The notes beneath the pieces were generated by a model. The model made no database searches and was not told the origin of the DNA. It saw nothing but the letters and a program-made list of their open reading frames with translations. A stretch of 50,914 nucleotides of DNA from Thermotogota bacterium (GTDB taxonomy: Bacteria; Thermotogota; Thermotogae; Petrotogales; Petrotogaceae), in the NCBI GenBank assembly GCA_051748045.1, contig JBNJGY010000010.1, forward strand, positions 1-50,914, given 5' to 3'. How positions within the stretch are numbered: the first letter of the stretch is position 1; each line of letters opens with the position of its first letter. Below, piece after piece: positions 18,868-36,307 of this stretch. Both the position numbers and the translations under genes were made by a program.

Positions 18868-19056
18868 CTCCTTTTTATTATTTTGTTATTATTAAATTTA
18901 AGAAATTTATTAATATACATATATATTCTCATATAAATTGAAATAATTAGCTATAATTAGTTATAAATAAACTTAATTTATTTTTAAAAAAGTGGTAATA
19001 TATATTTGTAGTTGTTTTACCGAGTTTTTCTCTCTATGTTCATAAAATCATTAGAT

Positions 19057-19082
19057 GGTGCTGAAAAGCACCTTTTTTTTTT
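19057..19082 (+). terminator. Leader terminator (attenuator or sRNA end) upstream of psuK
   Basis: GGTGCT-GAAA-AGCACC followed by T10; no + strand gene upstream to terminate. Confidence 0.75.
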
Positions 19083-19106
19083 ATATTAATTAAGAGGTGA
19101 TTATCT

Positions 19107-20039: not shown

Positions 20040-20949
20040 ACTAGATTATTTAGACATTAAACCTGAAGTAAAAAAGGCTATAGATGAAGGTAAACCAGTT
20101 ATTTCTCTTGAATCAACTATTATATCTCATGGAATGCCATATCCTCAAAATGTCGAAACCGCAAAAATGCTTGAAAATATAGCAAGAGAAAAAGGAGTGA
20201 CTCCTGCAACAATAGCTGTTATTAAAGGAAAGATAAAAATCGGTTTAGATGATGATGATCTTGAACATATAGCAACCTCTAAAAATGTTGTTAAAGCAAG
20301 TAGAAGAGATATATCATATGTGATGTCAAAAAAACTAGACGCTGCGACTACAGTCTCCGCTACAATGATTTTTTCAGCTATGGCTGGAATTAAGGTTTTT
20401 GCTACAGGAGGAATAGGTGGAGTTCATAGAGGAGCAGAAAAATCTTTTGATATATCATCAGACTTACAAGAATTATCTAAAACAAATGTAGCTGTTGTGT
20501 GTGCGGGAGCTAAAGCTATTTTAGATTTAAAGCTAACCTTAGAATATCTTGAAACAATGGGGGTTCCTGTAATTGGATATAGAACTGATAATTTACCAGC
20601 ATTCTATTCAAAAAATTCAGATTTACAAGTTCCTTTCAGGTTAGATACAGCTTCTATGATTTCAGATATGATGAAAACTAAATGGGATTTAGGATTAAAT
20701 GGAGGCCTATTAATAGCCAACCCAATTCCAGATGAATATTCTATGGATATTGATTTCATTAATCAATCTATTGAAATAGCTCTTAAAAAAGCAGAAGAGC
20801 TAAATATTACAGGTAAAAAAACAACTCCATTTTTGTTAGAAGAAATAAAAAATATAACAGAGGGAAAAAGTTTAGAATCAAATATTGAATTAGTAAAAAA
20901 TAATGTAATTTTAGCTTGTGATATTTCAAGAGAATACTACAATTTATAA
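20029..20949 (+). CDS. psuG: Pseudouridine-5'-phosphate glycosidase
   Basis: LESTIISHGMPYPQN, ATTVSATM, FATGGIGGVHRG, DISSDL, GKKTTPFLL. Confidence 0.95.
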   Translation: MKIKLDYLDIKPEVKKAIDEGKPVISLESTIISHGMPYPQNVETAKMLENIAREKGVTPATIAVIKGKIKIGLDDDDLEHIATSKNVVKASRRDISYVMSKKLDAATTVSATMIFSAMAGIKVFATGGIGGVHRGAEKSFDISSDLQELSKTNVAVVCAGAKAILDLKLTLEYLETMGVPVIGYRTDNLPAFYSKNSDLQVPFRLDTASMISDMMKTKWDLGLNGGLLIANPIPDEYSMDIDFINQSIEIALKKAEELNITGKKTTPFLLEEIKNITEGKSLESNIELVKNNVILACDISREYYNL

Positions 20950-20982
20950 ATAGATTTTACGGGGAAAATAAGGAGGGATAAA

Positions 20983-21648
20983 ATGGATGTAAAAATAAAA
21001 GATTCTTTTTATAACATGATGAATAAACTTCAAAGAGAAAAAGTAACAACATATATAAAAGAAAAATTGGATAATGATGAAATTTCATACAGAGATCTTT
21101 ATGAACAATTACTAATTCCATATCTTTCTAATTGGGATTGTGATGAAGATATTCAAGAACTATGTATATTTAAAGAACATGTATCGACTTCAATTATTCG
21201 AACTATTATTGAAATAAATTACCCTTTTTTGGTAAAACAAAGAAAAAAGCTTTTGAATGATGGAAGAATATCTGAATTAAGAAAAAAAATATTTGTCGCC
21301 TGTCCATCAGGAGAGTATCATGAAATTGGAGCTAGAATTGTAAGCGATTTTTTTTATATGAATGGATATGAAGTTTTATATGTGGGTGCCAATACTCCTT
21401 TAGATGAAATTATTAAAATGACCAAAGTTTTCATACCTGATTATATAGCTTTTAGTGTAAGTGATCCTTATAACATAATTTCAGCTAAAAAAACTATTTC
21501 AAGATTAAGAGAAAACAATACACAATCAAAAATAATAGTTGGAGGAAGAGCTTTTAAAATAAATCCACATGTTTTTAAACAGATAAAAGCTGATCTTTTA
21601 CTCAATTCATTTGAAGATATTGAAAAATTAGCTGAAGGTGATAAATAA
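20983..21648 (+). CDS. Stand-alone cobalamin-binding domain protein (CarH-like B12 module, no HTH)
   Basis: Helical cap with W...EH; PSGEYHEIG base-off His motif; VGANTP, FSVS, IVGGRAF. Confidence 0.85.
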   Translation: MDVKIKDSFYNMMNKLQREKVTTYIKEKLDNDEISYRDLYEQLLIPYLSNWDCDEDIQELCIFKEHVSTSIIRTIIEINYPFLVKQRKKLLNDGRISELRKKIFVACPSGEYHEIGARIVSDFFYMNGYEVLYVGANTPLDEIIKMTKVFIPDYIAFSVSDPYNIISAKKTISRLRENNTQSKIIVGGRAFKINPHVFKQIKADLLLNSFEDIEKLAEGDK

Positions 21649-22814
21649 TGGCTTTCTTATCTAAAATTGCATTTAGGTTTATGAAAAAAGGTGGAGGACA
21701 AACAATATTAATTATAGCAGGAATCGCAGTTGGAGTTGCAATTCAAATATTTATAGGGTTACTAATTCAAGGTCTTCAAGAAAGTTTAGTTAATCAGACA
21801 ATTGGTGACTCTTCACATGTTTCTATTTCATCTAGTTTAGAAAATGGGAATGTTAAAGACTATAATGATATTATAAGTAATATAGAACAAGTTGATACAA
21901 ACAATAGTATAAATGTTATCAACCCTACAATAGTAAAACCTTCAACTTTACAATTGGAAGAAGCTAACAAAAATATATTAGTTAAAGGAATGCCTATTGA
22001 TAGTGGAGAGAAGATTTATGAGTTTTCAGAGAAAATAACAATTGGGAACACTCCTAATGATGGAGAAGTAATTTTAGGAGAATATTATAAAGAAAAATTC
22101 AACTTACAAGTTGGTGATGAAATAAGTATTTTTATTTTAGATAAATTTGCTTCTGAAAAACTTAAAATATCAGGATTTTTTAAATTTGGAGTTCAAAATA
22201 TTAATGAAAGTTGGTTAATTACTAATCTTAATACTGCACAATCTTTATTTGAAACAAATACAGTAAGCAGTATAGAAATGCAAGTCAATTCGCCTCTTGA
22301 AGTTGAAATAGTTAAATCTTCTTTGAGCGATGAATTGAGTTTAAATGAAAATTTACAAATAGTAACTTGGAAAGAATTAAACGCAGATCTTTTAACAGCA
22401 TTAAGTAGTCAATCATTATCAAGTATAATGATTCAAGTATTTGTTATTATATCAGTATCCTTAGCAATTGCTTCTGTCTTAATAGTTTCAGTTTTACAAA
22501 AATCAAGAGAAATAGGTATTTTAAAAGCCATGGGGATTAAAAATTTTCAATCTAGTATGATTTTTGTGTTAGAAGGATTATTTTTAGGTATAATTGGAGC
22601 TTTGATTGGAGTGGCTTTTGGAATTGGGTTAATATTATCATTTACAACTTTTGCAGTAGAAGCAGATGGAAGTTCAGTGATACCAATAACATTTAATTAT
22701 GGATTTATTATTTTATCTTTTGTAATTGCCGTTTCTTCAGCAGTAATAGCCTCAATAATTGCTGGAAGAAAGTCATCTAAATTGAATCCTATAGAGGTGA
22801 TTAAAAATGGATAA
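21648..22814 (+). CDS. ABC transporter permease, MacB/LolE/FtsX family
   Basis: 1 TM, large periplasmic domain, then 3 TM; KSREIGILKAMG; LNPIEVI. Confidence 0.9.
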   Translation: MAFLSKIAFRFMKKGGGQTILIIAGIAVGVAIQIFIGLLIQGLQESLVNQTIGDSSHVSISSSLENGNVKDYNDIISNIEQVDTNNSINVINPTIVKPSTLQLEEANKNILVKGMPIDSGEKIYEFSEKITIGNTPNDGEVILGEYYKEKFNLQVGDEISIFILDKFASEKLKISGFFKFGVQNINESWLITNLNTAQSLFETNTVSSIEMQVNSPLEVEIVKSSLSDELSLNENLQIVTWKELNADLLTALSSQSLSSIMIQVFVIISVSLAIASVLIVSVLQKSREIGILKAMGIKNFQSSMIFVLEGLFLGIIGALIGVAFGIGLILSFTTFAVEADGSSVIPITFNYGFIILSFVIAVSSAVIASIIAGRKSSKLNPIEVIKNG

Positions 22815-23499
22815 TAATATAATAAAATTAAATAAAGTTAATAAAGTATATGGTGAGAAAATAAAAAATCATGTCATTCATGATATGGATTTAGAAGTCA
22901 AACAAAATTCTTTTCTTTCTATAATAGGACAGTCTGGTAGTGGTAAATCAACACTATTAAATATGATTGGCACTCTAGATACACAAACATCTGGTAACAT
23001 CTATATTGATGGAATAAATACAACAAAAATGAATAAAAAAGAATTGGCTGAACTGAGAAATCAAAAGATTGGATTTATTTTTCAATTTCATTATTTATTA
23101 AATGAATTTTCTGTTCTTGAAAATGTTTTAATACCTTATCAAATTTCTGGAAATAAAATAACTAAAAAGGTTAAAAATAAAGCTATAGAATTATTAGAAT
23201 TAGTTGGTTTAAAAAGTGTTATTAATTCAAACTCTAATAAAATATCAGGAGGACAGCAACAAAGAACTGCTATTGCAAGAAGTTTAATAAATGAACCTCC
23301 AATAATATTAGCTGATGAACCAACAGGAAATTTAGATTCTGATACAACAGAAAGTATATATAATCTCTTTAGAAAAATACATAAAGATTTAAACACAACT
23401 TTTATAGTAATAACTCACGATCAACATGTTGCTGAAAAAACCGATAGGATTATAGAATTAAAAGATGGACGTATAGAATCTGATATATACACTAAATAA
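22807..23499 (+). CDS. ABC transporter ATP-binding protein, LolD family
   Basis: GQSGSGKST, GFIFQFHYL, ISGGQQQR, LADEPTGNLD, ITHD. Confidence 0.95.
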   Translation: MDNNIIKLNKVNKVYGEKIKNHVIHDMDLEVKQNSFLSIIGQSGSGKSTLLNMIGTLDTQTSGNIYIDGINTTKMNKKELAELRNQKIGFIFQFHYLLNEFSVLENVLIPYQISGNKITKKVKNKAIELLELVGLKSVINSNSNKISGGQQQRTAIARSLINEPPIILADEPTGNLDSDTTESIYNLFRKIHKDLNTTFIVITHDQHVAEKTDRIIELKDGRIESDIYTK

Positions 23500-23543
23500 T
23501 ATAATATACAATGTATAGATAGATATAATCTAATAAAATATAT

Positions 23544-23589
23544 ATAAAATACATCGACAATAGTATAACAGATAGTCGGTGTATTTTAT
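23544..23589 (+). terminator. Hairpin/terminator after the ABC operon
   Basis: ATAAAATACATCGAC-N16-GTCGGTGTATTTTAT; the one mismatch is a U-G pair only in + strand RNA. Confidence 0.65.
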
Positions 23590-23772
23590 TATATAGTTAA
23601 TAATAAATATAGATAAGATTATACAGTATAAAAATGTTGTTGATTAAAAATAATAGACTAAAAATTATTATGTGTGTAATATCAAAATGTTATAATAATT
23701 TTTGAAATAAAAAAAAACAAAATTTTATAAAATATTTTTGATCTGAAATTTTCTTTGATTTATTAGTTAACC

Positions 23773-23798
23773 TGTCGGAAAACCTAAGTTTTCCGACA
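23773..23798. other. Isolated perfect inverted repeat (candidate recombination or protein-binding site)
   Basis: TGTCGGAAAAC-CTAA-GTTTTCCGACA in the middle of a 637-bp intergenic gap. Confidence 0.6.
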
Positions 23799-24025
23799 TT
23801 AGATAATAAAGTTTAATATAAAGCTTCTGTATTCTGCTAATGATCATTGTTTTAAGACGGTATCGATAAACGCTTTATTTTGGCTAATGATTATTTATAA
23901 TGATTAATTACATTATAAAAGAATTAAAAGCTTCATATAAACCAAATATGAAAGAGGTATATTTATAATAATTATATAATAAAACAATATAAAAGTATCT
24001 CTATAAAATAAAAGAGAGAATACAA

Positions 24026-24075
24026 TATAAAATAATAAAACTGTTATAAAATAATAAAACTGTTATAAAATAATA
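24026..24075 (+). repeat. 19-bp tandem repeat, ~2.6 copies
   Basis: TATAAAATAATAAAACTGT at 24026 and 24045, partial copy at 24064. Confidence 0.85.
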
Positions 24076-24086
24076 TAAAATCATAA

Positions 24087-24113
24087 ACACATTATATATA
24101 ATATATAAAGTGT
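24087..24113. promoter_or_regulatory. Putative TetR operator
   Basis: ACAC-a-TTATATAT-a-ATATATAA-a-GTGT palindrome just upstream of the tetR RBS. Confidence 0.45.
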
Positions 24114-24136
24114 ATAAAGAGAGGTTCATAATAAAA

Positions 24137-24712
24137 ATGAAGAAAACAACTGAAAAAAGAGTAGAAAAATTAATTAACATTTCAAAAGCAGAATTATTAG
24201 AAAAAGGTATTTCTGGTTTTAGTTTTGACAAAGCAATATCATCTACTAGTTTAAGTAAAGCAACTGTTTATAAATTATTTATTAATAAAGAAGGTTTCAT
24301 AAAAGCTGTTATAAAATCTGCATTAGAAGACATGATTCCACCGTTTAAAAAATTATTAGATAAATATAAATCTTTATCAGATGTTTTGGATGATTTGGAA
24401 AAGATAAACTTTGATGTTAAGTCTATTATAAAACAGTATCCAATAGAAGATTTAATAGATCATAAGGAATACACATCTTATATTAATAAGTTTTATTATG
24501 AATATTTTGGTAAAATTATTATAGATAAGATAAAAGAATTTCAAAATTCAGGTGAAATAAGAAATGATATAAATGCAATTTATATTTTTGAATTTATCAC
24601 ATCTGTGACTAAAGGTATGGGAAACATGTTAATTGATAAAAATTTTAAAGATGTTGTTAACAATTATAATAAATTAATTATGAATGCAATAAAAGGAAAA
24701 GGAGATATATAA
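24137..24712 (+). CDS. TetR/AcrR family transcriptional regulator
   Basis: KGISGFSFDKAISSTSLSKATVYKLFINKE HTH; C-terminal QNSGEIRND; ATG 24137 follows GAGAGG. Confidence 0.85.
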   Translation: MKKTTEKRVEKLINISKAELLEKGISGFSFDKAISSTSLSKATVYKLFINKEGFIKAVIKSALEDMIPPFKKLLDKYKSLSDVLDDLEKINFDVKSIIKQYPIEDLIDHKEYTSYINKFYYEYFGKIIIDKIKEFQNSGEIRNDINAIYIFEFITSVTKGMGNMLIDKNFKDVVNNYNKLIMNAIKGKGDI

Positions 24713-25806
24713 TGTATTTATTACTAGCAAATACCTCATTGGGTTTAGAAAAAATTTTAAAAGAAGAATTAAAAGATAATGGTTTTAAAATTAAAGATGT
24801 AAAAAGAGGAATGGTATATTGTTTAATAGATGAAAAAAATATTCATAACATAAAAAAAATAAGAACTGCTGAAAGAATCTATATGATAATGAAGGAATTT
24901 AAGTTTAAAAAATTAGATGATTATTTTGATAATATATATAATATTGAATGGAATGAATATTTTGGGATAAAAGATAAGGTTATAATCGATAAAGTAATAA
25001 TAAATAGCAAATATCATAAATCAGCAAAAACTTTTCAGTCACTAACTCAAAAAGCAGTATATAAAAAAATGATGGATAAATACAATATTGATTTTATGAT
25101 GGAAAGTAATAACGAATTTAAAATGAGGGTATTTATATTTGGTATAAAAGCTGTAATAGCATTGGATTTATCTGGTGAACCATTGCATAAAAGAAATTAT
25201 AAAAAATTTATCTCAAAAGCTCCTTTAAAAGAACACATTGCCTCTGCTCTAATATTATTTTCAAATTGGGATAAAAAAAGTCCTTTAATAGATCCATTTT
25301 GTGGTAGTGGGACTATACCTTTGGAAGCAGGTTTAATAGCAGCAGATATTTCTGCTGGGTTTATGAGAGAATATGATTATGAAAATATGCAAAAATTTTC
25401 TCATTATAAAAATGATTCTGATAAAGAAATAAATAATCCGGAAATTATTGGAACAGATAAAGAAGAAGATATGATTGAGACATCATTGAAAAATTATGAT
25501 AATATAAAATATGATTTAAATGTATCTTTTTATAAATCAAGTATGGAAAAGATTAAAAATAATTTTTCAAAAAAGGGGACTATAATAACTAATCCACCTT
25601 ATGGAGTAAGATTAGAAGATAAAAAACAAGCTATTAAACTGGTAGAACAAATGAGATATTTAAAAAAAGAATTTCAAGGGTGGGAATTAACTGTTATTAC
25701 AAGTCTAAAAAATTATGAAAAATATTTTGATCATAAAGCAACAAAAACAATTGAAATTATTAACGGTAAAATTAAATCTTTTATTTTTAATTATAAGGAG
25801 TTATAA
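24712..25806 (+). CDS. THUMP-domain RNA methyltransferase (RlmL/YpsC-like)
   Basis: LDLSGEPLHKRNY, APLKEHIA, DPFCGSGTIPLEA, ITNPPYG. Confidence 0.9.
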   Translation: MYLLLANTSLGLEKILKEELKDNGFKIKDVKRGMVYCLIDEKNIHNIKKIRTAERIYMIMKEFKFKKLDDYFDNIYNIEWNEYFGIKDKVIIDKVIINSKYHKSAKTFQSLTQKAVYKKMMDKYNIDFMMESNNEFKMRVFIFGIKAVIALDLSGEPLHKRNYKKFISKAPLKEHIASALILFSNWDKKSPLIDPFCGSGTIPLEAGLIAADISAGFMREYDYENMQKFSHYKNDSDKEINNPEIIGTDKEEDMIETSLKNYDNIKYDLNVSFYKSSMEKIKNNFSKKGTIITNPPYGVRLEDKKQAIKLVEQMRYLKKEFQGWELTVITSLKNYEKYFDHKATKTIEIINGKIKSFIFNYKEL

Positions 25807-25807
25807 A

Positions 25808-27049
25808 ATGAAAAGTAAAAAGATATTATTTTTAATTTTTATGATTTTAAATATATTAATATTTTCTGCAACTGATTATTACTATAATTATAAACCAAAA
25901 ACTAAACAAATAGATGTTTTTGATAATGATTATAAAAAATTAAATAATGAGCTAGATAAAATAACTGAAGAAATTGATTTCTTTATTGGTATTGATATTA
26001 AAAGCATAAAAAAAGAGGATATTTATAGTTTTAATTCATCAAAATATTTTAGACCTGCTTCAACGACTAAATTATTTACTACATATTTAGCTTTAAAAGA
26101 ATTTGGATTTAATAAAAATTTTCAAACACTAATATACTTAGAGGATACTCCTAACTCAGAAGTCACTTCTAATATATACATAAAAGGTTATGGAGATCCT
26201 TTTTTAACTGTTGAAGAATACAAAAGATTTTTAAATAAATTAAAATTAAGTGGAATAAAAACTATTTATGGAGATTTAATTTTTGATTTTTCTTATTATG
26301 ATATTAAAGGTTACGGTGAAGGATGGTTGTGGAATGATCCTCAACCTCAGGTTTTACCTCTTAATCTTTGGACTAACAATAATGCTTTATCTAAAAAAAC
26401 GAGCTATGAAAATCAAAAAGATAGAATAAAGTATTTAACTGTTTACTTACTTAATGATTTGGGGATAAATTTTCAAGGTGAAATTTTCGAAGAAAATGTT
26501 CCTGAACATTTAAATCCATATTTTACTAATAAATCAGAATCTTTAGGTAGTATATTAGAGTTTATGAATAAAGAAAGTGATAATTTTATATCAGAACATC
26601 TTTTTAGATATCTTATAAACAATTGGGAACTAAATAATAAAAATAATTATAAAGATATATCTGAATTAATAAATATTAAGCTCCCTTTTATTCCTGAAGA
26701 TATAGTAATTACAGATGGTACAGGACTTTCAACATATAACTTAGTCACACCTGGTATTATGAATGAATTAATTTTAAAATTAATAGATGATTTTTCATTA
26801 GATAAAACAAAAAATCTTTTAACAACTTCCTACGAAAATGGTGTATTTTTTGACAGATATAAAAAATCAAATTTATGGGTAAAAACCGGCACACTATATA
26901 CTGATTCTGCAATAACTGGTATTATTGAAAGTAAAAATAAAGAATATTATGTTTTTACAATCTTTATTAATAATGCAGTTGAAGAAAGTAAAATAATTAA
27001 AGATTTAGAGATAGATATAATAGAAACTATTTATGAAAATTTAAAATAA
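25808..27049 (+). CDS. dacB: D-Ala-D-Ala carboxypeptidase/endopeptidase (PBP4, peptidase S13)
   Basis: PASTTK (SxxK), GYGDP, SDN, DGTGLS, KTGTL; signal peptide from ATG 25808. Confidence 0.9.
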   Translation: MKSKKILFLIFMILNILIFSATDYYYNYKPKTKQIDVFDNDYKKLNNELDKITEEIDFFIGIDIKSIKKEDIYSFNSSKYFRPASTTKLFTTYLALKEFGFNKNFQTLIYLEDTPNSEVTSNIYIKGYGDPFLTVEEYKRFLNKLKLSGIKTIYGDLIFDFSYYDIKGYGEGWLWNDPQPQVLPLNLWTNNNALSKKTSYENQKDRIKYLTVYLLNDLGINFQGEIFEENVPEHLNPYFTNKSESLGSILEFMNKESDNFISEHLFRYLINNWELNNKNNYKDISELINIKLPFIPEDIVITDGTGLSTYNLVTPGIMNELILKLIDDFSLDKTKNLLTTSYENGVFFDRYKKSNLWVKTGTLYTDSAITGIIESKNKEYYVFTIFINNAVEESKIIKDLEIDIIETIYENLK

Positions 27050-27075
27050 AAATCGGCTTAGCCGATTTTTATTTT
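27043..27075. terminator. Bidirectional terminator between dacB and pfp
   Basis: AAAATAAAAATCGGC-tta-GCCGATTTTTATTTT. Confidence 0.88.
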
Positions 27076-28291
27076 ATTGATATATCTTTAATTTTAAATA
27101 ATCAGGTACACCATTTTTAAAAGGTGGATAGTATTCCCCATTTATTAGTGGTTTGCAATATTCTAAAAATTTATCAGTAACATACAAACCATCGGTAGTT
27201 ATGAAATCTTTTGGTAAATACTTAGTTTCGTTTGCTATTTTGCTTAGTGGAGCGAGTTTGTATTCTATTTGATAAGGAGAGTTAGAAACTCTTTCAAAAG
27301 AAACCATATATCCACTTATTCCATTTGTTGCAAATTCAACTGCTTTTTCACCAGCGATAATAGCTTCATTTACATCGGTTAGAGAAGACAAATGTCTTCC
27401 ACTTCTTTGTAAATAATCAGGAATAGCTGTATGAACTTTTAATTTTAATTCGTTATGAATTAAATCAGATATTACTTTACCTGCATATCCTAATTGTTTA
27501 TTACCAAAATTATCTTTATATCCAAGATCTGATATGAATTTTCCATCTGGATATTTAATTCCTTCTGAAACTGCAATTGAACAATATCCATCGTCGTTTA
27601 TCGCATCATTTATTTTTGAAAGAAATTTGTCTTTTTTAAATGAAATTTCTGGTAGAAGTATAACATGCGGCCCAAAATTATTGTTTATATTTGCCATTGC
27701 AGTTGAAGCTGCAAGCCAACCGGCATGCCTTCCCATGGTTTCTAAAACGAATACTTTTGTTGAATCTTTTGCCATACTTTTTACATCAATACTTCCTTCT
27801 AAAATTGAAGTAGATAAGTATTTAGCAGCTGAACCAAAACCAGGAGTATGGTCTGTATGCGGAAGATCATTATCCACAGTTTTTGGGATCCCCATTACTT
27901 TTAAGTCATATCCAGTAGATTTGGCGAACTCAGCGATTTTATTTGCAGTATCCATGGAGTCATTTCCACCGTTATAGAAAAAATAACCAATATTATATTT
28001 TTTAAAAATTTCAAATATATTTGTAAGTATTGGATCATTATTACTTTCAATCTTTCTTCTACAAGACCCAAAAGCACTAGAAGGAGTATATTTTAATAAT
28101 TCAATCTCTTTTTCTGGTAAATCTTTCATATTCATTAAATGCTCGTTTATAATTCCATTAATACCATTTATTGATATATACACATTTTCTATATTAGAAG
28201 CCAGAAAAGAACTCCTAATAACCCCATAAGCTGAAGCATTAATAACACTTGTAACTCCGCCAGATTGAGCATAAACTACATTTTTTTTCAT
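27074..28291 (-). CDS. pfp: Phosphofructokinase, predicted PPi-dependent
   Basis: QSGG, GGNDS (Asp variant) and PKTVDND (Lys variant) typical of PPi-PFK; MGRHAGW. Confidence 0.88.
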   Translation of the reverse strand: MKKNVVYAQSGGVTSVINASAYGVIRSSFLASNIENVYISINGINGIINEHLMNMKDLPEKEIELLKYTPSSAFGSCRRKIESNNDPILTNIFEIFKKYNIGYFFYNGGNDSMDTANKIAEFAKSTGYDLKVMGIPKTVDNDLPHTDHTPGFGSAAKYLSTSILEGSIDVKSMAKDSTKVFVLETMGRHAGWLAASTAMANINNNFGPHVILLPEISFKKDKFLSKINDAINDDGYCSIAVSEGIKYPDGKFISDLGYKDNFGNKQLGYAGKVISDLIHNELKLKVHTAIPDYLQRSGRHLSSLTDVNEAIIAGEKAVEFATNGISGYMVSFERVSNSPYQIEYKLAPLSKIANETKYLPKDFITTDGLYVTDKFLEYCKPLINGEYYPPFKNGVPDYLKLKIYQ

Positions 28292-28303
28292 TTAATACCC
28301 TCC

Positions 28304-29092
28304 TTATCTAAGTGCAATATTTTCTTCTTCACTAGATTGAGTTGTATAATTATCTTTGTCAGCTGGAATGACCATTCCAAAACCTTGAGCATTTTTTGCT
28401 CCCAAACCAGAATTTAGAGTTAACTTAATTAATTCTTTATCTCCTTTTAATTTAAAATAACCAGTCCAACCTTTGATTATAATTCCTTTATAGAATAACA
28501 ATTTTTCATTTTTTTCAGTTATACCATAGGGCTCTATAGTAATTGATTTTCCATCAGTACGAATACCTAATGCATTTGCTTTTCTTTTTAAATTATCTTC
28601 GACTAGTTTTTTAAAATCTGTAGAATATGGTGAAAAATAATGAGTATATCTATTCCCATTTGGTAGAACAATAGTTGAATAAGTAGTTATAGGAGACAAT
28701 GTTTTTACTAGTAAAGAATCATCAGAATTCTCTATAACCATTTCAGTCTTTTTTAAAGTAAAATAATTTTTTTCAACTCTGAAAATATCTTCAGATTCAA
28801 TAGATTTAAAAATTGCATCTATAATTTCTTGCATAGGTGATGCAAAATAAACTATAAAAGAACCATTGAATTTCATTCTTTTATGCTCTACTTTGAAAGA
28901 ACTCAAAGGATAAATTCTTGAAAATGTAAAAAGTTTAAGTTTTTTATTGTCAATAATTGTTCCATCATCATGATAATCTGGAATAGCATCTGACATTAGA
29001 TTATAGAACATACCCTGTAAAGGCCTATTATAATGAACTGGTAAATCAACAATTTCATCTTGAACAGGCTTAAATTCCAATTTTAATACCAT
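28304..29092 (-). CDS. cas6: CRISPR-associated endoribonuclease Cas6, stand-alone
   Basis: LPVHYN..LQG..Y, HDDG, KLFTFS, TLSPI, G-rich loop GLGAKNAQGFG. Confidence 0.92.
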   Translation of the reverse strand: MVLKLEFKPVQDEIVDLPVHYNRPLQGMFYNLMSDAIPDYHDDGTIIDNKKLKLFTFSRIYPLSSFKVEHKRMKFNGSFIVYFASPMQEIIDAIFKSIESEDIFRVEKNYFTLKKTEMVIENSDDSLLVKTLSPITTYSTIVLPNGNRYTHYFSPYSTDFKKLVEDNLKRKANALGIRTDGKSITIEPYGITEKNEKLLFYKGIIIKGWTGYFKLKGDKELIKLTLNSGLGAKNAQGFGMVIPADKDNYTTQSSEEENIALR

Positions 29093-29200
29093 TTAAATCC
29101 CCCCAAACAAAATATCTGTACATTAAATATATATTTAATAATAGCACAATTATTATATCAAAAACAAACATATAATAAAACTATATATATAAATTAAAAA

Positions 29201-29223
29201 TAAACCCGGTAATACCGGGTTTA
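29201..29223. terminator. Terminator after the sugar ABC ATPase gene
   Basis: TAAACCCGGT-aat-ACCGGGTTTA with a minus-strand T run. Confidence 0.8.
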
Positions 29224-29240
29224 ATTAAAAATGAAGTTGA

Positions 29241-30353
29241 TTAAAATATTGCTTCTTCTGTTTCTTTATCAAAAGCATGCATAGCATTCATATCAAATAC
29301 TAATTCCATATCTTGCATAGCTTCTGCTTCGGTTCTTGGTGTAACTTTAGCAGTAAATGTTTGGTCTGCTATTTTTGCATGTAATAATGTTTCTGCACCT
29401 AATGGTTCAACTACTTCTATTTTTGTTTTTAATACATTTCCTTCATGAGCAGCCCCTTCTTTTTCTTCATAAAAAGCTTTATCATATATATCCTCAGGTC
29501 TTATACCAAATAAAAGTTCTTTATCTATATAATCTTCAAAATGTTTTTCATATTTTTCTGGTACTTCCAAGTTTATACCTTCATGTTTAAGCCATATTCC
29601 ATTTTCTTTTACAACTTTTACATTCATGAAATTCATAGCAGGAGTTCCTATGAAACCAGCTACAAATACATTTCTTGGTTGATGGTAAACTTCATTTGGA
29701 CTGCCTATTTGTTGTACCCAACCGTCTTTAAGAATAACTATTTTATCTGCCATTGTCATAGCTTCAACTTGGTCATGAGTAACATAAGCTATAGTCGCAT
29801 TTAATCTTAAATGTAATTTTTTAAGCTCAGCCCTCATTTGGACTCTTAGTTTCGCATCCAAATTTGAAAGAGGTTCATCAAATAAGAATACTTTAGGATC
29901 TCTTACAATAGCTCTACCAACAGCAACTCTTTGTCTTTGTCCACCGGATAGTTGCTTAGGTTTATTTTCTAATAAATGTTCAATATCTAAAATCTTAGCG
30001 GCGTTTCTAACTCTTTGATCAATTTCATCTTTTGGCATTTTTCTTAGTTTTAAACCGAAAGCCATATTATCATAAACTGACATATGTGGATATAAAGCGT
30101 AATTTTGGAAAACCATGGCAATATCTCTATCTTTTGGTTCAACATCATTTATAACTTTATCGTCAATTTTAATAGTACCTTTTGAAATATCTTCTAATCC
30201 AGCGATCATTCTTAATGTAGTAGTTTTCCCACAACCAGATGGACCTAATAAAACAACAAACTCTTGGTCTTTAATAGTAAAATCACAGTCTTTTACCGCA
30301 TGAAATCCATTTGGGTAAATTTTATTTACTTTAGATAATAATACGTCTCCCAT
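29241..30353 (-). CDS. Sugar ABC transporter ATP-binding protein (MsmX/MalK/UgpC family)
   Basis: GPSGCGKTT, MVFQNYALYPHM, LSGGQRQR, FDEPLSNLD, FVAGFIG, C-terminal TOBE domain; no permease nearby. Confidence 0.95.
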   Translation of the reverse strand: MGDVLLSKVNKIYPNGFHAVKDCDFTIKDQEFVVLLGPSGCGKTTTLRMIAGLEDISKGTIKIDDKVINDVEPKDRDIAMVFQNYALYPHMSVYDNMAFGLKLRKMPKDEIDQRVRNAAKILDIEHLLENKPKQLSGGQRQRVAVGRAIVRDPKVFLFDEPLSNLDAKLRVQMRAELKKLHLRLNATIAYVTHDQVEAMTMADKIVILKDGWVQQIGSPNEVYHQPRNVFVAGFIGTPAMNFMNVKVVKENGIWLKHEGINLEVPEKYEKHFEDYIDKELLFGIRPEDIYDKAFYEEKEGAAHEGNVLKTKIEVVEPLGAETLLHAKIADQTFTAKVTPRTEAEAMQDMELVFDMNAMHAFDKETEEAIF

Positions 30354-30368
30354 TTTTGCACCTCCGAG

Positions 30369-30623
30369 TTATAAATCAAAATCTTTAAAAAACTTTTTGA
30401 AATTTTTATATTCTTCAATATCATCTATCTCTAATAAAGATAGATCTTTTATTTCATCTATAAACTTTAATATATTATTGTATTTTTCATAATTAACTAA
30501 CATCGCTTCAGGCTTTCCATTTTTAGTAATTATAATATCCGATTTCTTAGAATTTTCAATAACTTCTGAAAACTTTGCTTTTGCTTGAGCAATACTATAA
30601 AAATTAATTTCATCTAAGTTCAT
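30369..30623 (-). CDS. Phd/YefM family antitoxin-like protein, orphan
   Basis: YSIAQAKAKFSEVIE...IIITKNGKPEAMLVNYEKY; acidic C-terminus. Confidence 0.88.
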   Translation of the reverse strand: MNLDEINFYSIAQAKAKFSEVIENSKKSDIIITKNGKPEAMLVNYEKYNNILKFIDEIKDLSLLEIDDIEEYKNFKKFFKDFDL

Positions 30624-30634
30624 ATACCCACCCC

Positions 30635-30672
30635 TTGACTATAATTATAGTCAAAATAATCATTAATGTCAA
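30635..30672 (-). promoter_or_regulatory. Consensus sigma70 promoter with a 20-bp perfect palindromic operator
   Basis: Minus strand TTGACA(30672-30667)-N17-TATAAT(30649-30644); TTGACTATAATTATAGTCAA at 30635..30654. Confidence 0.85.
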
Positions 30673-30748
30673 ATAAATGATTTAAGCATGAAATTTAGAA
30701 ATATATTAATAATTAATAATAATAACACATAAATCAAAATAATTGAGG

Positions 30749-31099
30749 TTATCCACTTTTATCTATTTTTTTTCTTCTTAATCCTTCTTGCACATTATAA
30801 TATCCTTTTTTAATTGCATTTTTACCTTTCTGGATATTCATTTGATCATTTTTTAAATTATTCATTTTCTTTTCAATTAGCTCTTTTCTAGCTTTGTCTT
30901 TATTTATTATTTCTTCTAATTTTTCTTTTACTTTTTCCATATCAAAAAAGTTTTCTAATTTTTTAAATGTTTTCATTCTTGAATCCATTAAAGAATTATA
31001 TTTGATAAAATCTTCATTTTCTATTGCATCATCTAGATTATTTTCTATTAAGTCAAGTTCTGATATAATTAAATCTATTTCTTTATTTAGTTCATCCAT
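30749..31099 (-). CDS. Helical hypothetical protein, FliT-like flagellar chaperone
   Basis: 116 aa, all-helical; AIENEDFIKYNSLMDSR and C-terminal KGY..IDK pattern resemble FliT. Confidence 0.4.
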   Translation of the reverse strand: MDELNKEIDLIISELDLIENNLDDAIENEDFIKYNSLMDSRMKTFKKLENFFDMEKVKEKLEEIINKDKARKELIEKKMNNLKNDQMNIQKGKNAIKKGYYNVQEGLRRKKIDKSG

Positions 31100-32435
31100 T
31101 TCTATTCACCTTCTTTCTGTCTCTGAGATAATTTTTAACATCCTCAAGTTCTTTTTTAGAAATTCCTTCTTTCCACCAATATGGTATATATGTGTTATTC
31201 AATAAAAGAGGATCTGTATCACTAGGCAAAAGACCTTGTTTGATTAATTGAACATAATCTTTTGTTCCAGGTATAGGAGTATATTCATTAATATTTGCGT
31301 TAATTCCAAGTTCTAGACAAAAATCAATGGCCTCATATAACTCTTCAATTTCTTGACCAGGAAGATTAGAAATTATATATGCTCCAATATTATCCAGATC
31401 AATTCCAGAGTTTTTGAAACATTTAACAGCATTAATTAAATCAATATTAGTTACTTTGTTACCTGTTTTTTTCTGCATTTCAGGATTTGAAGTTTCATAT
31501 CCAAGTTTTATTATTTTAAATCCAGATAATTTTAACTGATCTGAAATAGATTGATTGATTATATGGGCATGTATTCCATTAGGTAGATGATAATTTACAT
31601 TGAAATTTTCTAGCATCTTTAGCATCTCTTTTAAATTTGGTCTTAGAAGAAATGCATCATCAAAAAATACAATGTCTTTTATTTGAGGATGTTTTGCTAA
31701 TATATTTGATAATTCTCTTTCTATACTATATATTGTTTTATACTTAAATTTCCACATATTTGGAGTTGAACAATAACTACAGTTATATGGACACCCTATA
31801 GAATTCAATATAACTGCGTATGGAATTTTATTATTATATTCAGAATAATCTAATAAAATATTTTCAAACCAATCATATTCTTCAATATCTTTTTCTTCAT
31901 AATATCTTAAAATCTTATTTATTGCTTGTATTCCCGTTCCGTTAATAATATTTACGTTATACTTAGAAAAAATATTTCTAGAATGTTTTGGATATAAGTT
32001 TGAATATATACCTCCCATGAAAATTGGAGTCTCTGGGAAAAATTCTCTAATAGTTTCAATAGTTTTTAACCCACCATAATACCAATAGGTTAAAGTTACA
32101 CCTGTGATAATCCCATCAATATTTTGAATTTCTTTTAGTTTTTCTTTTAATAGTTCTTTAGGTATCCCATAACGTTTGAATTTTCTATCTATAAAATTTA
32201 TCAAAGAAGGCATTTTTACTTTCTCTGTGTAAAATTTACCAGTACCATAGTATTTGTCTCTTGGTATTGTATATTTTTCTATACCTTCCATGTACCTATC
32301 TAAATTGTCTATGAATATAATTTCATGCCCTTGTTTTTTTAATATTTTTGAAATATAAAGCAATCCTAAAGGTTTAAGCCAGAAATCATAAGCTGCAGAA
32401 TCATAAATCCAAGGATTGATTACTAGAAATTTCAA
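31092..32435 (-). CDS. B12-binding-domain radical SAM protein
   Basis: PLGLLYI and MGGIY cobalamin-type domain; GCPYNCSYC; FFDDAF. Confidence 0.85.
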   Translation of the reverse strand: MKFLVINPWIYDSAAYDFWLKPLGLLYISKILKKQGHEIIFIDNLDRYMEGIEKYTIPRDKYYGTGKFYTEKVKMPSLINFIDRKFKRYGIPKELLKEKLKEIQNIDGIITGVTLTYWYYGGLKTIETIREFFPETPIFMGGIYSNLYPKHSRNIFSKYNVNIINGTGIQAINKILRYYEEKDIEEYDWFENILLDYSEYNNKIPYAVILNSIGCPYNCSYCSTPNMWKFKYKTIYSIERELSNILAKHPQIKDIVFFDDAFLLRPNLKEMLKMLENFNVNYHLPNGIHAHIINQSISDQLKLSGFKIIKLGYETSNPEMQKKTGNKVTNIDLINAVKCFKNSGIDLDNIGAYIISNLPGQEIEELYEAIDFCLELGINANINEYTPIPGTKDYVQLIKQGLLPSDTDPLLLNNTYIPYWWKEGISKKELEDVKNYLRDRKKVNRNG

Positions 32436-33217
32436 TTATCATCACCCAGTTCATCTAAAAGAAAATAATATAATCCTTTCAAAGTTAAATTTGAATCGTA
32501 ATTATCAAAAATCCAAGATTTATTTTTTAATGATTTTGCCATACCTCCAGTAGTAACTATTTTGTATTTATCATTATCCTCTGATTGGATTTCTTCAATT
32601 AATTTTTCTAAACCATATATAGTTAATTTAATTATCCCAATTTGTAAATTGTCTATAGTATTAATACCTTTATTATAATCAGGAATATCGAGTTCTATTT
32701 GAGGTAATCTAGCTGTATTAGAAAAAAGAGCTAACATAGATGTTTTGAAACCTGGAGAAATTGAACCGCCTACAAAATCTCCTTCTTCTACAATATCTAC
32801 TGTAATAGCAGTTCCAAAATCAATTGCAATAACATTTTTACCATAATCTTTTCTTGAAGCGATTACATTAGCTATTCTATCTGGTCCTATTTCATGTGGA
32901 TATTCAGCTTTATATTTAATATTGAAAACATTTTTAGTATGATCTAAAAAATATGTACTACAATTAAAATATTTTTCTCCCATTTTTTTAATCATATAAT
33001 TCATACTTGGGACAACTGAAGCAACAGCAATAGAATTTATTTCTTTAGTATTAATCTCATTTATTGTTAGTAAATTGTATAAATGAGAAAAAAGTTCATC
33101 TTCAGTTTCAAAAGTATTAGTTCCAATTCTTATAGTTTTTATTTGTTCAAAACCAGTAATTTCTTTGATAATGCCTATAACCATATTAGTATTTCCAACA
33201 TCTATTAATAAAAACAT
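32432..33217 (-). CDS. coaX: Type III pantothenate kinase
   Basis: IDVGNTN, SVVP, GPDR, IDFGTAIT, TARLP, TGG. Confidence 0.93.
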   Translation of the reverse strand: MFLLIDVGNTNMVIGIIKEITGFEQIKTIRIGTNTFETEDELFSHLYNLLTINEINTKEINSIAVASVVPSMNYMIKKMGEKYFNCSTYFLDHTKNVFNIKYKAEYPHEIGPDRIANVIASRKDYGKNVIAIDFGTAITVDIVEEGDFVGGSISPGFKTSMLALFSNTARLPQIELDIPDYNKGINTIDNLQIGIIKLTIYGLEKLIEEIQSEDNDKYKIVTTGGMAKSLKNKSWIFDNYDSNLTLKGLYYFLLDELGDDN

Positions 33218-33236
33218 ATTTTCCTCCATCTCTTAA

Positions 33237-34235
33237 TCAAATTATTTTATTTGCTGCTTTTCTTAATCTATTCATAATAGCAATTCCTATTCCTTTATCT
33301 TCAATTGGTTGAACTACGATGTTTTTATATTTTTTATCGTATTTTCTTAACATATAAAATAGATTAACTCCAAATTCATAATAATTATTATCATTAGCTA
33401 TTATTTCATATGTATAGTTTTTCTTTTTAAAGAATTCTTCCTGTGATTTTAAAATAAGAAAAATTGGATTTTCTATCTCATCAATTTTACTAATATTTTC
33501 CATAATTAAAACATCACTATCTGGAGCATAATGTCTGTATTTCATTCCTGGGGCGATAGCTATGTCTGCTTCCTTGTTTCCATAAATAAAACTTGGAATC
33601 TTTATTTCTCCAAATATTTCTTTTAACTTTTCTGGTGGGATTGGACCTGGCCTCAATAATGTAGGTATTTCTTCTGTTAGATTTATAATAGTGGACTCTA
33701 TACCAAATTCTAATTTTCCAGAGACCAAGATATAATCGACCTTATCTTTCATATCTTCTATAACATGTTCTGGATATGTAGGTGAAGGTTTTCCCGATAT
33801 ATTTGCAGATGGAGCAGCAATAGGAAGATTAGATGCTTCTATGAGCTTGTTAGAAATTGGATGAGCAGGAATTCTAATTGCTACAGTTTCTCTTCCTGCA
33901 GTTATATCATATGGCACAATATTTTTTTTGTTTAAAACAAAAGTGATTGGACCTGGTACCAAAGTTTCTATTTTTTCATACATATCAAATGGTAAGTAAC
34001 AATATTGTAAAACATCTTCTAATTTGGAAAAATGAAGAATCAATGGATTATCAGAAGGTCTGCCTTTTGCTTTATATATTTTTTTAACAGCGTTTGCTGA
34101 AAGCCCATTAGCCCCCAATCCATAAACTGTTTCTGTGGGGAATATAACAGTTTTATCATTCTTTAAAGCATTAGCAGCTTCAAAAATCTTATTTAAATCA
34201 ATATTTGAAATATTTAGTTCATATATTTTACTCAT
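33237..34235 (-). CDS. sua5: L-threonylcarbamoyladenylate synthase (Sua5/TsaC)
   Basis: PTETVYGLG, KGRPSDNPLI, APSANISG, APGMKYRHYAP. Confidence 0.95.
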   Translation of the reverse strand: MSKIYELNISNIDLNKIFEAANALKNDKTVIFPTETVYGLGANGLSANAVKKIYKAKGRPSDNPLILHFSKLEDVLQYCYLPFDMYEKIETLVPGPITFVLNKKNIVPYDITAGRETVAIRIPAHPISNKLIEASNLPIAAPSANISGKPSPTYPEHVIEDMKDKVDYILVSGKLEFGIESTIINLTEEIPTLLRPGPIPPEKLKEIFGEIKIPSFIYGNKEADIAIAPGMKYRHYAPDSDVLIMENISKIDEIENPIFLILKSQEEFFKKKNYTYEIIANDNNYYEFGVNLFYMLRKYDKKYKNIVVQPIEDKGIGIAIMNRLRKAANKII

Positions 34236-34337
34236 TTTATACCTTCTTTCTTTTATTGTTTTATTATATTTTAACAGATTTAAAAAACAAAAATATGAAA
34301 TTTTATTTTAAATAAAAAAATTGTTTTTAATAAAACA

Positions 34338-34444
34338 AGAAATAAATTTCATTATATACATCTTATTGCTTTAGAAGTATCATAAACCTATTAAATCAAG
34401 TTTGAAAAATATTTCATAAATGATAAAATTTTCATATATGAAAA
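34338..34444 (+). promoter_or_regulatory. Repeated TGAAA-N4-TTTCA-like boxes and a 16-bp palindrome upstream of glnA
   Basis: AGAAATAAATTTCA 34338, TGAAAAATATTTCA 34403, TGATAAAATTTTCA 34421, TTTTCATATATGAAAA 34429..34444. Confidence 0.45.
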
Positions 34445-34462
34445 AGTTTTAGGAGGGATTAT

Positions 34463-35821
34463 ATGAACTTAAGAAAGTATGATGGAGATTTATCCAGTGT
34501 AGACTTTTTAGATATGATGATGATCGATATATCAGGTAACATGAGACATGTATCACTTGCAAAAAGTTATATTACCGACAAAACTTTTGAAGAAGGAATA
34601 GGATTTGACGCTTCAAATTTAGGTTTTGCAAAAGTAACTAAATCAGACATGGTTGCTGTACCTGATATGGATAAAGCTTTTATTGAAGAAAAGGATGGAT
34701 TTAAAATACTTCATGTTTTTTGTGATGTAGTTGATCCCTTTGATAATGAAAGAGTTTTTGAACAATATCCAAGAAACGTAGTTAAAAATACATGTAAATA
34801 TTTAAAAGATACTGGAATAGCAGATTCTGTTAAAATGCTTGTTGAATTAGAATTTCATGTTTTTGATGAAGTAAGATATTCTTCAGCTCATAATCATTCT
34901 TATTATTCTTTGAATTCTTCTGAAGGAATTGGAGAAACATTTGGTTCTTTACCTAGAATGCCTCATGATTCAGGTTATCATAAACTTTATCCAGAAGAAA
35001 AATATTTCACCTTTAGAAATAGTGTTGTAAGTGTATTAGAAGGATTAGATATACCTGTAAAGTATCATCATCATGAAGTAGGTATTGCTCAACTAGAAAT
35101 TGAATTGAATTTCATGAGTTTAGAAGATGTAGCTGATAACATAAGTATAGCAAAATGGGTTATTAAAAATATTGCAAATGAAATGGAATTATATGTAACT
35201 TTCATGCCTAAACCAATATATAAAATGCCTGGAAATGGTATGCATGTTCATCAATTCTTAGAAAAAGACGGAAAATCTCTTTTTATAGGAGATAAAGAAC
35301 ATGGTTTAAGTGATGTTGGGCTACATTATACATGTGGAATATTAGATCATGCATTATCTGGTTCTTTATTAGCATTTACTAATCCTAGTACAAATTCTTA
35401 TAAAAGATTAGTACCAGGCTTTGAAGCTCCTGTAAGTGCTACATATGCAAAAGGAAGTAGATCAGCTGCGGTTAGAATTCCTGGATATCTTAAAAAAGAT
35501 TCAGTAAGAATTGAATATAGAACTGGTGATGCAACATGTAATTTATATTATGCTTTATCAGCAATGGTTTTAGCTGGTATAGATGGTATATTAAATAAAT
35601 CAGATCCTAAAGCTAGAGGCTACAATTCAGCTGATAATATTGAAGAAAAAATATTCCCACTAGATTTAGACGCTGTTCTAGATGGATTAAAAAAAGATTT
35701 TGACTATTTAAATAAAGTCTTCCCAGAATCATTGATTGATGAATGGATTATTATTAAAAAGAAAGAAGCAAATTACGTTTATAATGCACCCACTCCTCAA
35801 GAGTATGAGCTATATTTCTAA
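34463..35821 (+). CDS. glnA: Glutamine synthetase family protein (type I)
   Basis: FDAS, ELEF, HHHEVG..QLEI, TFMPKP, GNGMHVHQ, NSYKRLVPGFEAP, RIEYR. Confidence 0.9.
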   Translation: MNLRKYDGDLSSVDFLDMMMIDISGNMRHVSLAKSYITDKTFEEGIGFDASNLGFAKVTKSDMVAVPDMDKAFIEEKDGFKILHVFCDVVDPFDNERVFEQYPRNVVKNTCKYLKDTGIADSVKMLVELEFHVFDEVRYSSAHNHSYYSLNSSEGIGETFGSLPRMPHDSGYHKLYPEEKYFTFRNSVVSVLEGLDIPVKYHHHEVGIAQLEIELNFMSLEDVADNISIAKWVIKNIANEMELYVTFMPKPIYKMPGNGMHVHQFLEKDGKSLFIGDKEHGLSDVGLHYTCGILDHALSGSLLAFTNPSTNSYKRLVPGFEAPVSATYAKGSRSAAVRIPGYLKKDSVRIEYRTGDATCNLYYALSAMVLAGIDGILNKSDPKARGYNSADNIEEKIFPLDLDAVLDGLKKDFDYLNKVFPESLIDEWIIIKKKEANYVYNAPTPQEYELYF

Positions 35822-35827
35822 AAAAGT

Positions 35828-35853
35828 AAGAGGACTGAAAATTCAGTCCTCTT
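35828..35853. terminator. Bidirectional terminator between glnA and fliJ
   Basis: AAGAGGACTGAA-aa-TTCAGTCCTCTT with flanking A/T runs. Confidence 0.82.
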
Positions 35854-36292: not shown

Positions 36293-36307
36293 AAATATCG
36301 CCTTCTA

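Follow-up and report, generated by a model that had tools for sequence, protein, structure and literature searches.

We analysed a stretch of 50,914 nucleotides from a Thermotogota bacterium of the family Petrotogaceae (assembly GCA_051748045.1, contig JBNJGY010000010.1, positions 1 to 50,914; hereafter the window), in which a cas6 gene stands alone directly upstream of pfp, the gene of a pyrophosphate (PPi)-type 6-phosphofructokinase (PPi-PFK). Solo cas6 genes are usually dismissed as debris of loci with clustered regularly interspaced short palindromic repeats (CRISPR) or as trans-acting helpers. The one described here behaves as a housekeeping gene, its position being fixed over eight genera and the purifying selection on it being as strong as that on a glycolytic enzyme. 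The reading that we favour, with a probability of about 0.5, is that it encodes a domesticated core-genome Cas6, kept for a CRISPR-independent role on RNA and possibly still processing CRISPR RNA (crRNA) in trans. Domestication is favoured because the ratio of nonsynonymous to synonymous substitution rates (dN/dS) is at housekeeping level, because the gene persists where no effector genes or cognate repeats were found, because the conserved histidine was lost without relaxed selection, and because solo Cas6 is conserved while the Cas7 of the type I-B locus is poorly conserved.

Distribution, synteny and inheritance of the solo cas6 gene

We surveyed 151 Thermotogota genomes (48 genera, 11 families), 26 of which, from 10 genera, belong to the family of the window; genomes and genera are designated below by G and g numbers. 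A protein search found an orthologue of the solo Cas6, with an open frame and 56-96% identity, in 18 of the 26 family genomes and in eight of the 10 genera. Of the eight genomes lacking it, seven are all those of genus g9 and one, at just 62% completeness, is the sole representative of g4. No orthologue occurs in the 125 other Thermotogota, and outside the family no match is better than 38% identity. A search of about 5.8 billion proteins showed a gap in identity, the clade ending at 56% and everything beyond it reaching 37% at most. The source names above this gap are Oceanotoga teriensis, Petrotoga sp., Defluviitoga sp., Tepiditoga spiralis and 'Petrotogaceae bacterium'; Petrotoga, Oceanotoga, Defluviitoga and Tepiditoga are cultivable relatives, in which the role of the gene would be directly testable.

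The surroundings of the gene are conserved as well. As determined by tblastn, a gene for an ATP-binding cassette (ABC) transporter ATPase lies upstream of cas6 in 17 of the 18 orthologue genomes, and in the eighteenth the contig ends inside cas6. Directly downstream, pfp is found in 16 of the 18; in a seventeenth, G004, cas6 is split over two contigs and the contig with its 3' end runs into pfp. The exception is G003, where pfp is on another contig and convergent genes follow cas6; judged by look only, with no family search, their first residues resemble glycine-cleavage proteins. The cas6-pfp adjacency, which the original prediction (made from the window's sequence alone) had offered as a trait to be followed across Thermotogota, is therefore kept in 17 of the 18 orthologue genomes of the family and is found in none of the others surveyed. 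At the 12 pfp loci examined in genus g9 and the sister family, no cas6 and no ABC gene is present within 1.5 kb of pfp.

The spacer between cas6 and pfp measures 12-51 bp in 13 of 14 relatives and 172 bp in the remaining one, G006. In all 14 a hairpin after the ABC gene is visible by eye (our terminator script flagged it in 10), as is a G-rich ribosome-binding element of the GGGGGGAT type before cas6. The script flagged none of the 14 cas6-pfp spacers; a 10-pair hairpin with a T-rich tail, seen by eye right after cas6 in G006, escaped it, since its greedy stem extension runs on into the T run. These data indicate that cas6 heads a two-gene unit in most genera. Its link to pfp is broken in G003 and probably also in G006, and both genomes have kept cas6. 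As a separate observation, in G002, the closest relative of the window's genome and a 68% complete metagenome-assembled genome, pfp (G002:C68, L006/L156) matches the window's protein only over residues 1-71 and 177-405 of the latter, with about 100 nt between the two parts; an internal deletion, a frameshift or a misassembly might account for this.

For the phylogeny we used 61 Cas6 sequences, comprising the 16 full-length orthologues, 22 locus-linked Cas6 of the order and every second protein of the set P0019-P0063; the partial sequences L021, L022, L027 and L034 were excluded. Set against the locus-linked Cas6, a comparison already proposed in the original prediction, the pfp-linked orthologues form a separate monophyletic clade (support 100 in the Shimodaira-Hasegawa-like approximate likelihood ratio test) with a stem of 1.13 substitutions per site and short internal branches. 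The nearest neighbours of this clade are locus-linked Cas6 of the same order (support 88). The main groupings of the cas6 tree agree with those of a tree of pfp plus the ABC gene from 14 genomes. The solo gene has a single origin and has been inherited vertically.

Nei-Gojobori estimates of dN/dS over nine genome pairs gave 0.04-0.25 for cas6, 0.02-0.25 for pfp and 0.02-0.14 for the ABC gene. Among less diverged pairs cas6 gave 0.07-0.25; individual values were 0.043 within the genus of the window, 0.054 for G008-G014, 0.11 for G017-G019 and 0.22 for G019-G023. The orthologues of genus g3, which lack the conserved histidine, gave 0.043 over 207 codons and 0.114 over 203 codons, and in the cas6 tree g3 and g5 have long branches. 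Selection on cas6 matches that on housekeeping genes, its neighbours included.

The gene persists while effector modules turn over

The draft assembly to which the window belongs, as contig C10, comprises 158 contigs and 2.41 Mb at 99.65% completeness. This genome as a whole is not cas-free: it has a type I-B locus with its own cas6, on the 7.1-kb contig C69, in the order cas6 (3' end only)-cas8b-cas7-cas5-cas3-cas4-cas1 (first 42 codons only). The second Cas6 match of the genome consists of the last 37 residues of this gene, which is cut by the start of the contig; PADLOC identified Cas8b (3.9e-28), Cas7b (4.8e-28), Cas5b (1.3e-24), Cas3b (8e-141) and Cas4b (6.8e-52) behind it. No cas locus beyond C69 was found in the genome, and a family scan detected no type III gene of the repeat-associated mysterious protein (RAMP) kind. 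By a Cas2 family scan and a k-mer scan of the 158 contigs, cas2 and arrays are not in the assembly, and neither of the two repeats of relatives described below occurs in the genome with up to six mismatches allowed. The arrays are probably unassembled, because the assembly holds no contig under 2.5 kb, its shortest contigs being of at least this length. Two metagenome scans made to extend C69, one with Cas8b as query and one with an exact stretch of 41 nt, found nothing. A CRISPR candidate reported by the k-mer scan at the end of contig C2 (around 127549..127675) proved to be a coding Gln/Pro/Ala-rich repeat of CAACAACAA...GCTCCACAG units and not an array.

The type I-B module of this genome is not shared across its relatives. 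In the two other genomes of the genus the best match to its Cas7 shares only 37-40% identity with it, and the 38 further genomes searched in the order yielded no Cas7 match at E <= 1e-20; the I-B proteins of G001 are 28-35% identical to those on C69. Solo Cas6 is 88-96% identical within the same genus. Effector modules turn over, whereas the solo cas6 does not.

Two classes of repeat were followed through the relatives. The first, which we call ancestral, has the 3' half ACCTAT[AG]AGGAAT[GT]GAAAC (ACCTATGAGGAATGGAAAC) and occurs in genera g2, g3, g5, g6, g7 and g9; it gave no hit in any of G000, G001 and G002, of the window's genus, and only chance-level hits in G009 and G011. The second, TCTAACA...TATTTAAAT, forms arrays in G001 and G009, of the window's genus and its sister genus. 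That of G001 (L035, contig C5) lies in a I-B locus with its own Cas6 (PADLOC type PDLC01784), and that of G009 (L168/L169; contigs C13 and C6) adjoins type III RAMP genes and has a weak Cas6 match in its vicinity.

According to a PF01881 scan, the pfp-linked gene is the only Cas6 in five of the 18 orthologue genomes (G002, G008, G011, G019 and G021). In G021 a complete III-C module (Cmr1, Cmr6, Cas10, Cmr4, Cmr5, Cmr3) is placed between arrays of 41 and 32 repeats; no cas6 was found in this locus and no Cas1 in the genome. Neither G008, which is a single contig, nor G019 gave a Cas1, Cas2 or RAMP match, a Cas3-core match above the curated cut-off or a second Cas6. G011 gave no Cas1, Cas2 or Cas3-core match above cut-off, no RAMP and no second Cas6, and holds only sub-threshold fragments of cas3, cas1 and cas2. 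All three keep an intact solo cas6 orthologue. A Cas5 scan (PF09704) was uninformative, as it missed even G001, which has Cas5.

The array of G008 is flanked by sugar ABC-transporter genes on one side and apparent tryptophan-synthesis genes on the other; neither a cas gene nor a masked stretch lies within 20 kb of it. Its leader of about 170 nt resembles that of the I-B array of a congener. A comparison with G014 did not show a clean deletion of the cas operon, since the alignment is limited to the arrays and about 170 nt of leader and the flanks are not syntenic. Elsewhere in the same genome (G008:C1, about 1819000-1824300, L131), a two-repeat CRISPR remnant lies beside a truncated AAA_15 ATPase gene, a gene for a UvrD-like helicase and one for a DNA methylase; this region looks like a decayed defence island.

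These observations can also be read in purely CRISPR terms. The solo gene would then encode a constitutive core-genome Cas6 that matures crRNA in trans for the current I-B or type III modules, with a specificity that tracks their repeats or is broad, and it would have been retained since CRISPR immunity is almost always in use in the family. The Cas1 matches in 22 of the 26 family genomes are in keeping with this, as are the canonical motifs and fold of the protein (see below) and its nearest relatives in the tree; a locus-linked Cas6 related to the solo clade, L023, lies beside an array of the ACCTATGAGGAATTGAAAC class. In G021, 73 repeats and a complete III-C module are served by no other Cas6 in the genome, and G008 combines an array of about 52 repeats with a single Cas6. 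The use in trans of arrays that lie far away is a topic of PMC7145637. Several results argue the other way. Since the I-B loci of the window's genome and of G001 have their own cas6, a second Cas6 is redundant in both, and yet selection on the solo gene within this genus is strong. The ancestral repeats were not found in the three genomes of the genus, nor above chance in G009 and G011; the orthologue stays intact where no Cas1, Cas2, Cas3-core or RAMP gene was found (G008 and G019, with fragments only in G011); the conserved histidine is lost in two genera still under purifying selection; and Cas modules turn over around a gene that does not. We rank this explanation below domestication in its general and its specific form (see below), while regarding it as a serious possibility. 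It is compatible with the domesticated role, the two not being mutually exclusive.

The protein is a structurally canonical Cas6

The product of the solo gene matched the Pfam family Cas_Cas6_C (PF01881) at 4.3e-32 (112 bits, cut-off 23), the Cas6 N-terminal domain (PF21350) at 5.1e-08 (33.5 bits, cut-off 27), the cas6 equivalog TIGR01877 with 101.9 bits (cut-off 58.65) and PADLOC Cas6b at 1.6e-57. Its AlphaFold2 model (mean predicted local distance difference test score, pLDDT, 87.9; predicted template modelling score 0.86) contains two tandem RNA recognition motif (RRM, ferredoxin-like) domains, and only the last eight residues, 255-262, have a pLDDT below 50. When the model was compared with the PDB by Foldseek, the top nine matches were all Cas6 or Cas6-related, with template modelling (TM) scores of 0.69-0.81. 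The best solved fold matches were 5yi6, 3ufc, 3qjj, 3i4h and 3pkm (TM-scores 0.72-0.81 for 5yi6, 3qjj and 3i4h), and a sequence search against solved structures retrieved 5yi6 (2.4e-13) and 3pkm (6.9e-11). Genomic association with cas genes or an array, a contextual rather than family-defining property, was not found for this gene.

In an alignment of 114 Cas6 sequences the column of His41 is at least 90% conserved, Tyr30 is nearly invariant and Gly229, Gly231, Asn234, Gly237, Phe238 and Gly239 are invariant. Lys53 aligns with the lysine preceding FTFS in 3pkm, and Tyr30 and Lys53 align with residues that we take to be Tyr31 and Lys52 of Pyrococcus furiosus Cas6, in which the histidine, tyrosine and lysine are presumably catalytic. 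We infer that the protein of the window is a catalytically active endoribonuclease. The original prediction of an intact Cas6 with an HDDG histidine and a GLGAKNAQGFG loop was borne out, His41 and residues 229-239 being present and the profile scores above cut-off; the C-terminal tail of about 20 residues that it described as acidic is real but only mildly so, with five acidic and two basic residues in 20. This tail differs among the orthologues and is not conserved.

The 16 full-length orthologues share 87 invariant columns, including PVHYNRPLQG, FT[FY]SRIYP, YTHY, PYG.TEKNEK, KGWTGY and the glycine-rich loop. The loop is unchanged in 14 of the 16, with conservative changes in g3 and g5. His41, Tyr30 and Lys53 are all retained in the protein of the window and in six of the eight genera; the conserved histidine is replaced in g3 (QYFGSS) and deleted in g5.

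The loss of this residue raises the alternative of a non-catalytic RNA-binding factor or protein partner, for instance a chaperone of RNA or a regulator acting on the adjacent genes of sugar metabolism, that cleaves no RNA. Purifying selection persists in the histidine-less orthologues of g3 and g5, the fold match 3qjj is titled 'One RAMP protein binding different RNA substrates', and the flanking ABC ATPase and pfp genes are conserved, all of which would suit such a factor. The retention of the three residues in the window's protein and in most genera points away from it, and no evidence for any protein partner was obtained (no complex prediction was run). As a general account of the gene we consider it improbable.

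The cas6-pfp unit and its transcription

The positions of the elements discussed here are collected in Table 1. As the original prediction had stated, a terminator separates cas6 from the upstream gene, our terminator scan having returned the same hairpin, and only 12 bp that hold the pfp ribosome-binding site lie between cas6 and pfp; the scan reported nothing between the two genes. Of its claim that cas6 has a -10 element of its own, the element TGATATAAT is present and fits what we take to be the consensus of an extended -10 element, but a sigma-70 scan did not report it as a full -35/-10 site.

Parts of the window are contained in 10 runs recorded as RNA, belonging to three of the four studies listed and all labelled salt lake metagenome. 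Three RNA runs were examined as contigs, which give no transcript ends, strand or expression level. Contigs that bridge the cas6-pfp junction without mismatch came from two runs, both of one study; they measure 605 nt (27956..28560) and 356 nt (28034..28389). Other contigs from the RNA libraries cover the start of cas6 and extend to 29186-29199, upstream of TGATATAAT, and the promoter is therefore unconfirmed. Co-transcription of cas6 and pfp is plausible; carry-over of DNA is possible, and a two-gene contig is no proof of a single transcript.

The operon also bears on the explanation that cas6 is the leftover of a decayed CRISPR-cas locus, its frame being kept only since nonsense or frameshift mutations would cut pfp expression by polarity. 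This is very improbable: pfp does rely on the upstream promoter region in most relatives, given the 12-51 bp spacers without a terminator, but polarity selects against stop codons and not against amino-acid changes, and yet cas6 evolves at dN/dS 0.04-0.25 with 87 invariant columns over 16 full-length orthologues from eight genera, stays intact in G003 without pfp downstream and in G006 with a hairpin before pfp, and has no degraded repeat or cas fragment in its flanks.

Proposed role and the evidence against it

The original prediction had offered two readings of the gene, one in which crRNA maturation is tied to glycolytic expression and one in which Cas6 is domesticated for RNA processing outside CRISPR. 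The second is the better supported. The first is weakened, as is any functional tie to pfp, because G003 keeps cas6 without an adjoining pfp and because a terminator-like hairpin stands between cas6 and pfp in G006. The data exclude a chance arrangement of the genes.

Under domestication, cas6 would have left its CRISPR-cas context in an ancestor of most of the family and then become a fixed core-genome gene, standing first after the promoter in a cas6-pfp unit that lies downstream of the gene for a sugar-transport ATPase. It would have been retained through a benefit independent of the resident CRISPR-Cas system, most likely the sequence- or structure-specific binding, and in most genera the cleavage, of one or more host RNAs. 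The chemistry would come from the two RRM-type domains, the glycine-rich loop and the residues His41, Tyr30 and Lys53. Where arrays of the ancestral class exist, crRNA is probably still matured in trans. The link to pfp would mainly give steady expression, with no functional coupling to glycolysis. A more specific version states that in most of the family Cas6 is a housekeeping RNA-processing or RNA-binding factor that is made from the same transcript as PPi-PFK, acts on host RNAs independently of CRISPR and can dispense with its histidine in two genera; we put this forward tentatively, at somewhat less than even odds.

A number of observations weigh against a CRISPR-independent role. The protein has lost none of the hallmarks that a functional crRNA endonuclease shows, and His-independent Cas6 enzymes exist, so that loss of the histidine is no proof of lost cleavage. 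In G021 the pfp-linked Cas6, on another contig than the III-C module, is the only candidate maturase found. The repeats of the array in G008 (L129/L130, G008:C1:1134826-1138274) have nearly identical cores, and the loss of cas genes from this genome may be recent; in G019 what is left of an array is short and decaying. For both G008 and G019, 8000 bases per genome lay outside the scans and could hide cas genes. The genome-wide array search in relatives was confined to the repeat classes described above, and the arrays of the window's genome being unassembled, its own repeats are unseen. In several of the genome pairs used for dN/dS, dS exceeds 1.2 and is saturated. Finally, no host RNA substrate was found: solitary repeat-like sites in the genome numbered five, against two in a reversed control. 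Such sites (three mismatches or fewer) were rejected as candidate substrates, their number being near chance and the best match lying inside an open reading frame (ORF) on contig C153.

Other features of the window

Table 1. Features of the cas6-pfp locus and its upstream neighbour (window coordinates).
Feature	Position	Strand	Remarks
Solo cas6	28304..29092	-	262 aa; ATG at 29092; stop codon 28304..28306 included
pfp, PPi-type 6-phosphofructokinase gene	27074..28291	-	405 aa; NF010675; Pfam PFK 1.3e-53
cas6-pfp spacer	28292..28303	-	12 bp, GGAGGGTATTAA; holds pfp ribosome-binding site GGAGGG
cas6 ribosome-binding site GGGGGG	29099..29104	-	Read from sequence
TGATATAAT, candidate extended -10 promoter element for cas6-pfp	29152..29160	-	Read from sequence
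Intrinsic terminator hairpin ending the ABC ATPase transcript	29201..29223	-	10-pair stem, 5 G-C pairs, then T run; terminator scan
Intrinsic terminator ending the cas6-pfp unit	27042..27076	-	16-pair stem; terminator scan
MalK-type ABC transporter ATPase gene, conserved neighbour upstream of cas6	29241..30353	-	Pfam ABC_tran 2.9e-34, OB_MalK, TOBE
His41 codon, conserved His of Cas6 subfamily	28970..28972	-	Column at least 90% conserved, 114-sequence alignment
Glycine-rich loop GLGAKNAQGFG, residues 229-239	28376..28408	-	Six positions invariant in 114-sequence alignment

The pfp product scored 550.4 bits (cut-off 273) with NF010675, the PPi-PFK subfamily PRK14072, and is assigned to this subfamily by its profile match. 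It is not the Thermotogales-type PPi-PFK, the equivalog NF041103 giving only 64.9 against a cut-off of 550.

No further cas gene was detected on the 50.9-kb contig by Cas1, Cas2, RAMP and Cas6 family scans or by tblastn with I-B, III-C and adaptation proteins, and Tandem Repeats Finder, the k-mer scan and Rfam at gathering scores (0 matches) agree that the window holds no CRISPR array, in accordance with what had been noted from the sequence at the outset. Over the whole window (1..50914) no Rfam family reached its gathering score, whether tRNA, riboswitch or CRISPR direct-repeat (CRISPR-DR) model.

Two further regions were recorded. Fifteen bp upstream of the ABC ATPase gene, an 84-aa gene resembling Phd/YefM-type antitoxins (30369..30623, minus strand; PF02604, 5.5e-14) has no adjoining toxin partner. 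G003 has a similar small ORF in the same place, and the Phd-like gene appears to be part of a conserved block radical-SAM / coiled-coil / Phd-like / ABC / cas6 / pfp. On the plus strand, a THUMP/methyltransferase-like ORF (24712..25806) and an S13 D-Ala-D-Ala carboxypeptidase ORF (25715..27049) share about 90 nt in the ORF list; translation of the latter probably begins at an internal Met near 'MKSKKILFLIF', which opens a stretch resembling a signal peptide.

Significance and comparison with known systems

If its target is indeed a host RNA, this gene would illustrate clearly how a CRISPR RNA endonuclease has been taken over for the normal physiology of the cell. If it is instead a shared crRNA maturase, it would explain how type III modules without cas6 work in these bacteria, and a part of the CRISPR machinery would have become core genome while the rest turns over; mature crRNAs processed in trans by the solo Cas6 would bear the 8-nt handle ATGGAAAC. 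For annotation, the gene should not count for or against a functional CRISPR system, either way.

The protein resembles Cas6 of the I-A/I-B/III kind, such as 5yi6 and the P. furiosus enzyme (3i4h/3pkm), in its family profile, two-domain fold, glycine-rich loop and FTFS motif. Unlike these, its gene is neither part of a cas locus nor next to an array, has descended vertically within a family and evolves at a housekeeping rate, and in the HMMER alignment its conserved histidine comes six residues earlier than that of P. furiosus Cas6. Thermus thermophilus TTHA0078, which we take to be a stand-alone gene and which is among the fold matches (4c8y/4c8z), shares with it the state of a single cas6 that is remote from the effectors and could mature crRNA in trans, a description that G021 fits. 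The gene of the window differs in that it heads a glycolytic-enzyme operon, a position kept in 17 of 18 genomes, and in that it is kept where no effectors were found and in a genus with another repeat class and its own Cas6. Pyrococcus horikoshii PH0350 (3qjj/3qjp), among the top five fold matches and presumably a non-catalytic protein that binds RNA without the catalytic histidine, offers a Cas6-fold precedent for the g3 and g5 orthologues; the protein of the window, in contrast, keeps the histidine.

Stand-alone cas6 genes are already known, while a conserved solo cas6 in a housekeeping operon was not found described, most subscription-journal papers and supplements being outside the search. 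PMC5294841, on isolated cas loci, does not mention cas6, and the Cas6 passages of the exaptation review PMC8730458 contain no solo Cas6 fixed in a housekeeping operon. These passages do describe Cas proteins that are retained without an adaptation module or array and are presumed to act outside canonical immunity. Their examples are multi-gene effector derivatives, such as a Streptomyces I-E derivative with a STAND NTPase, and in this they differ from the solo cas6 of the window.

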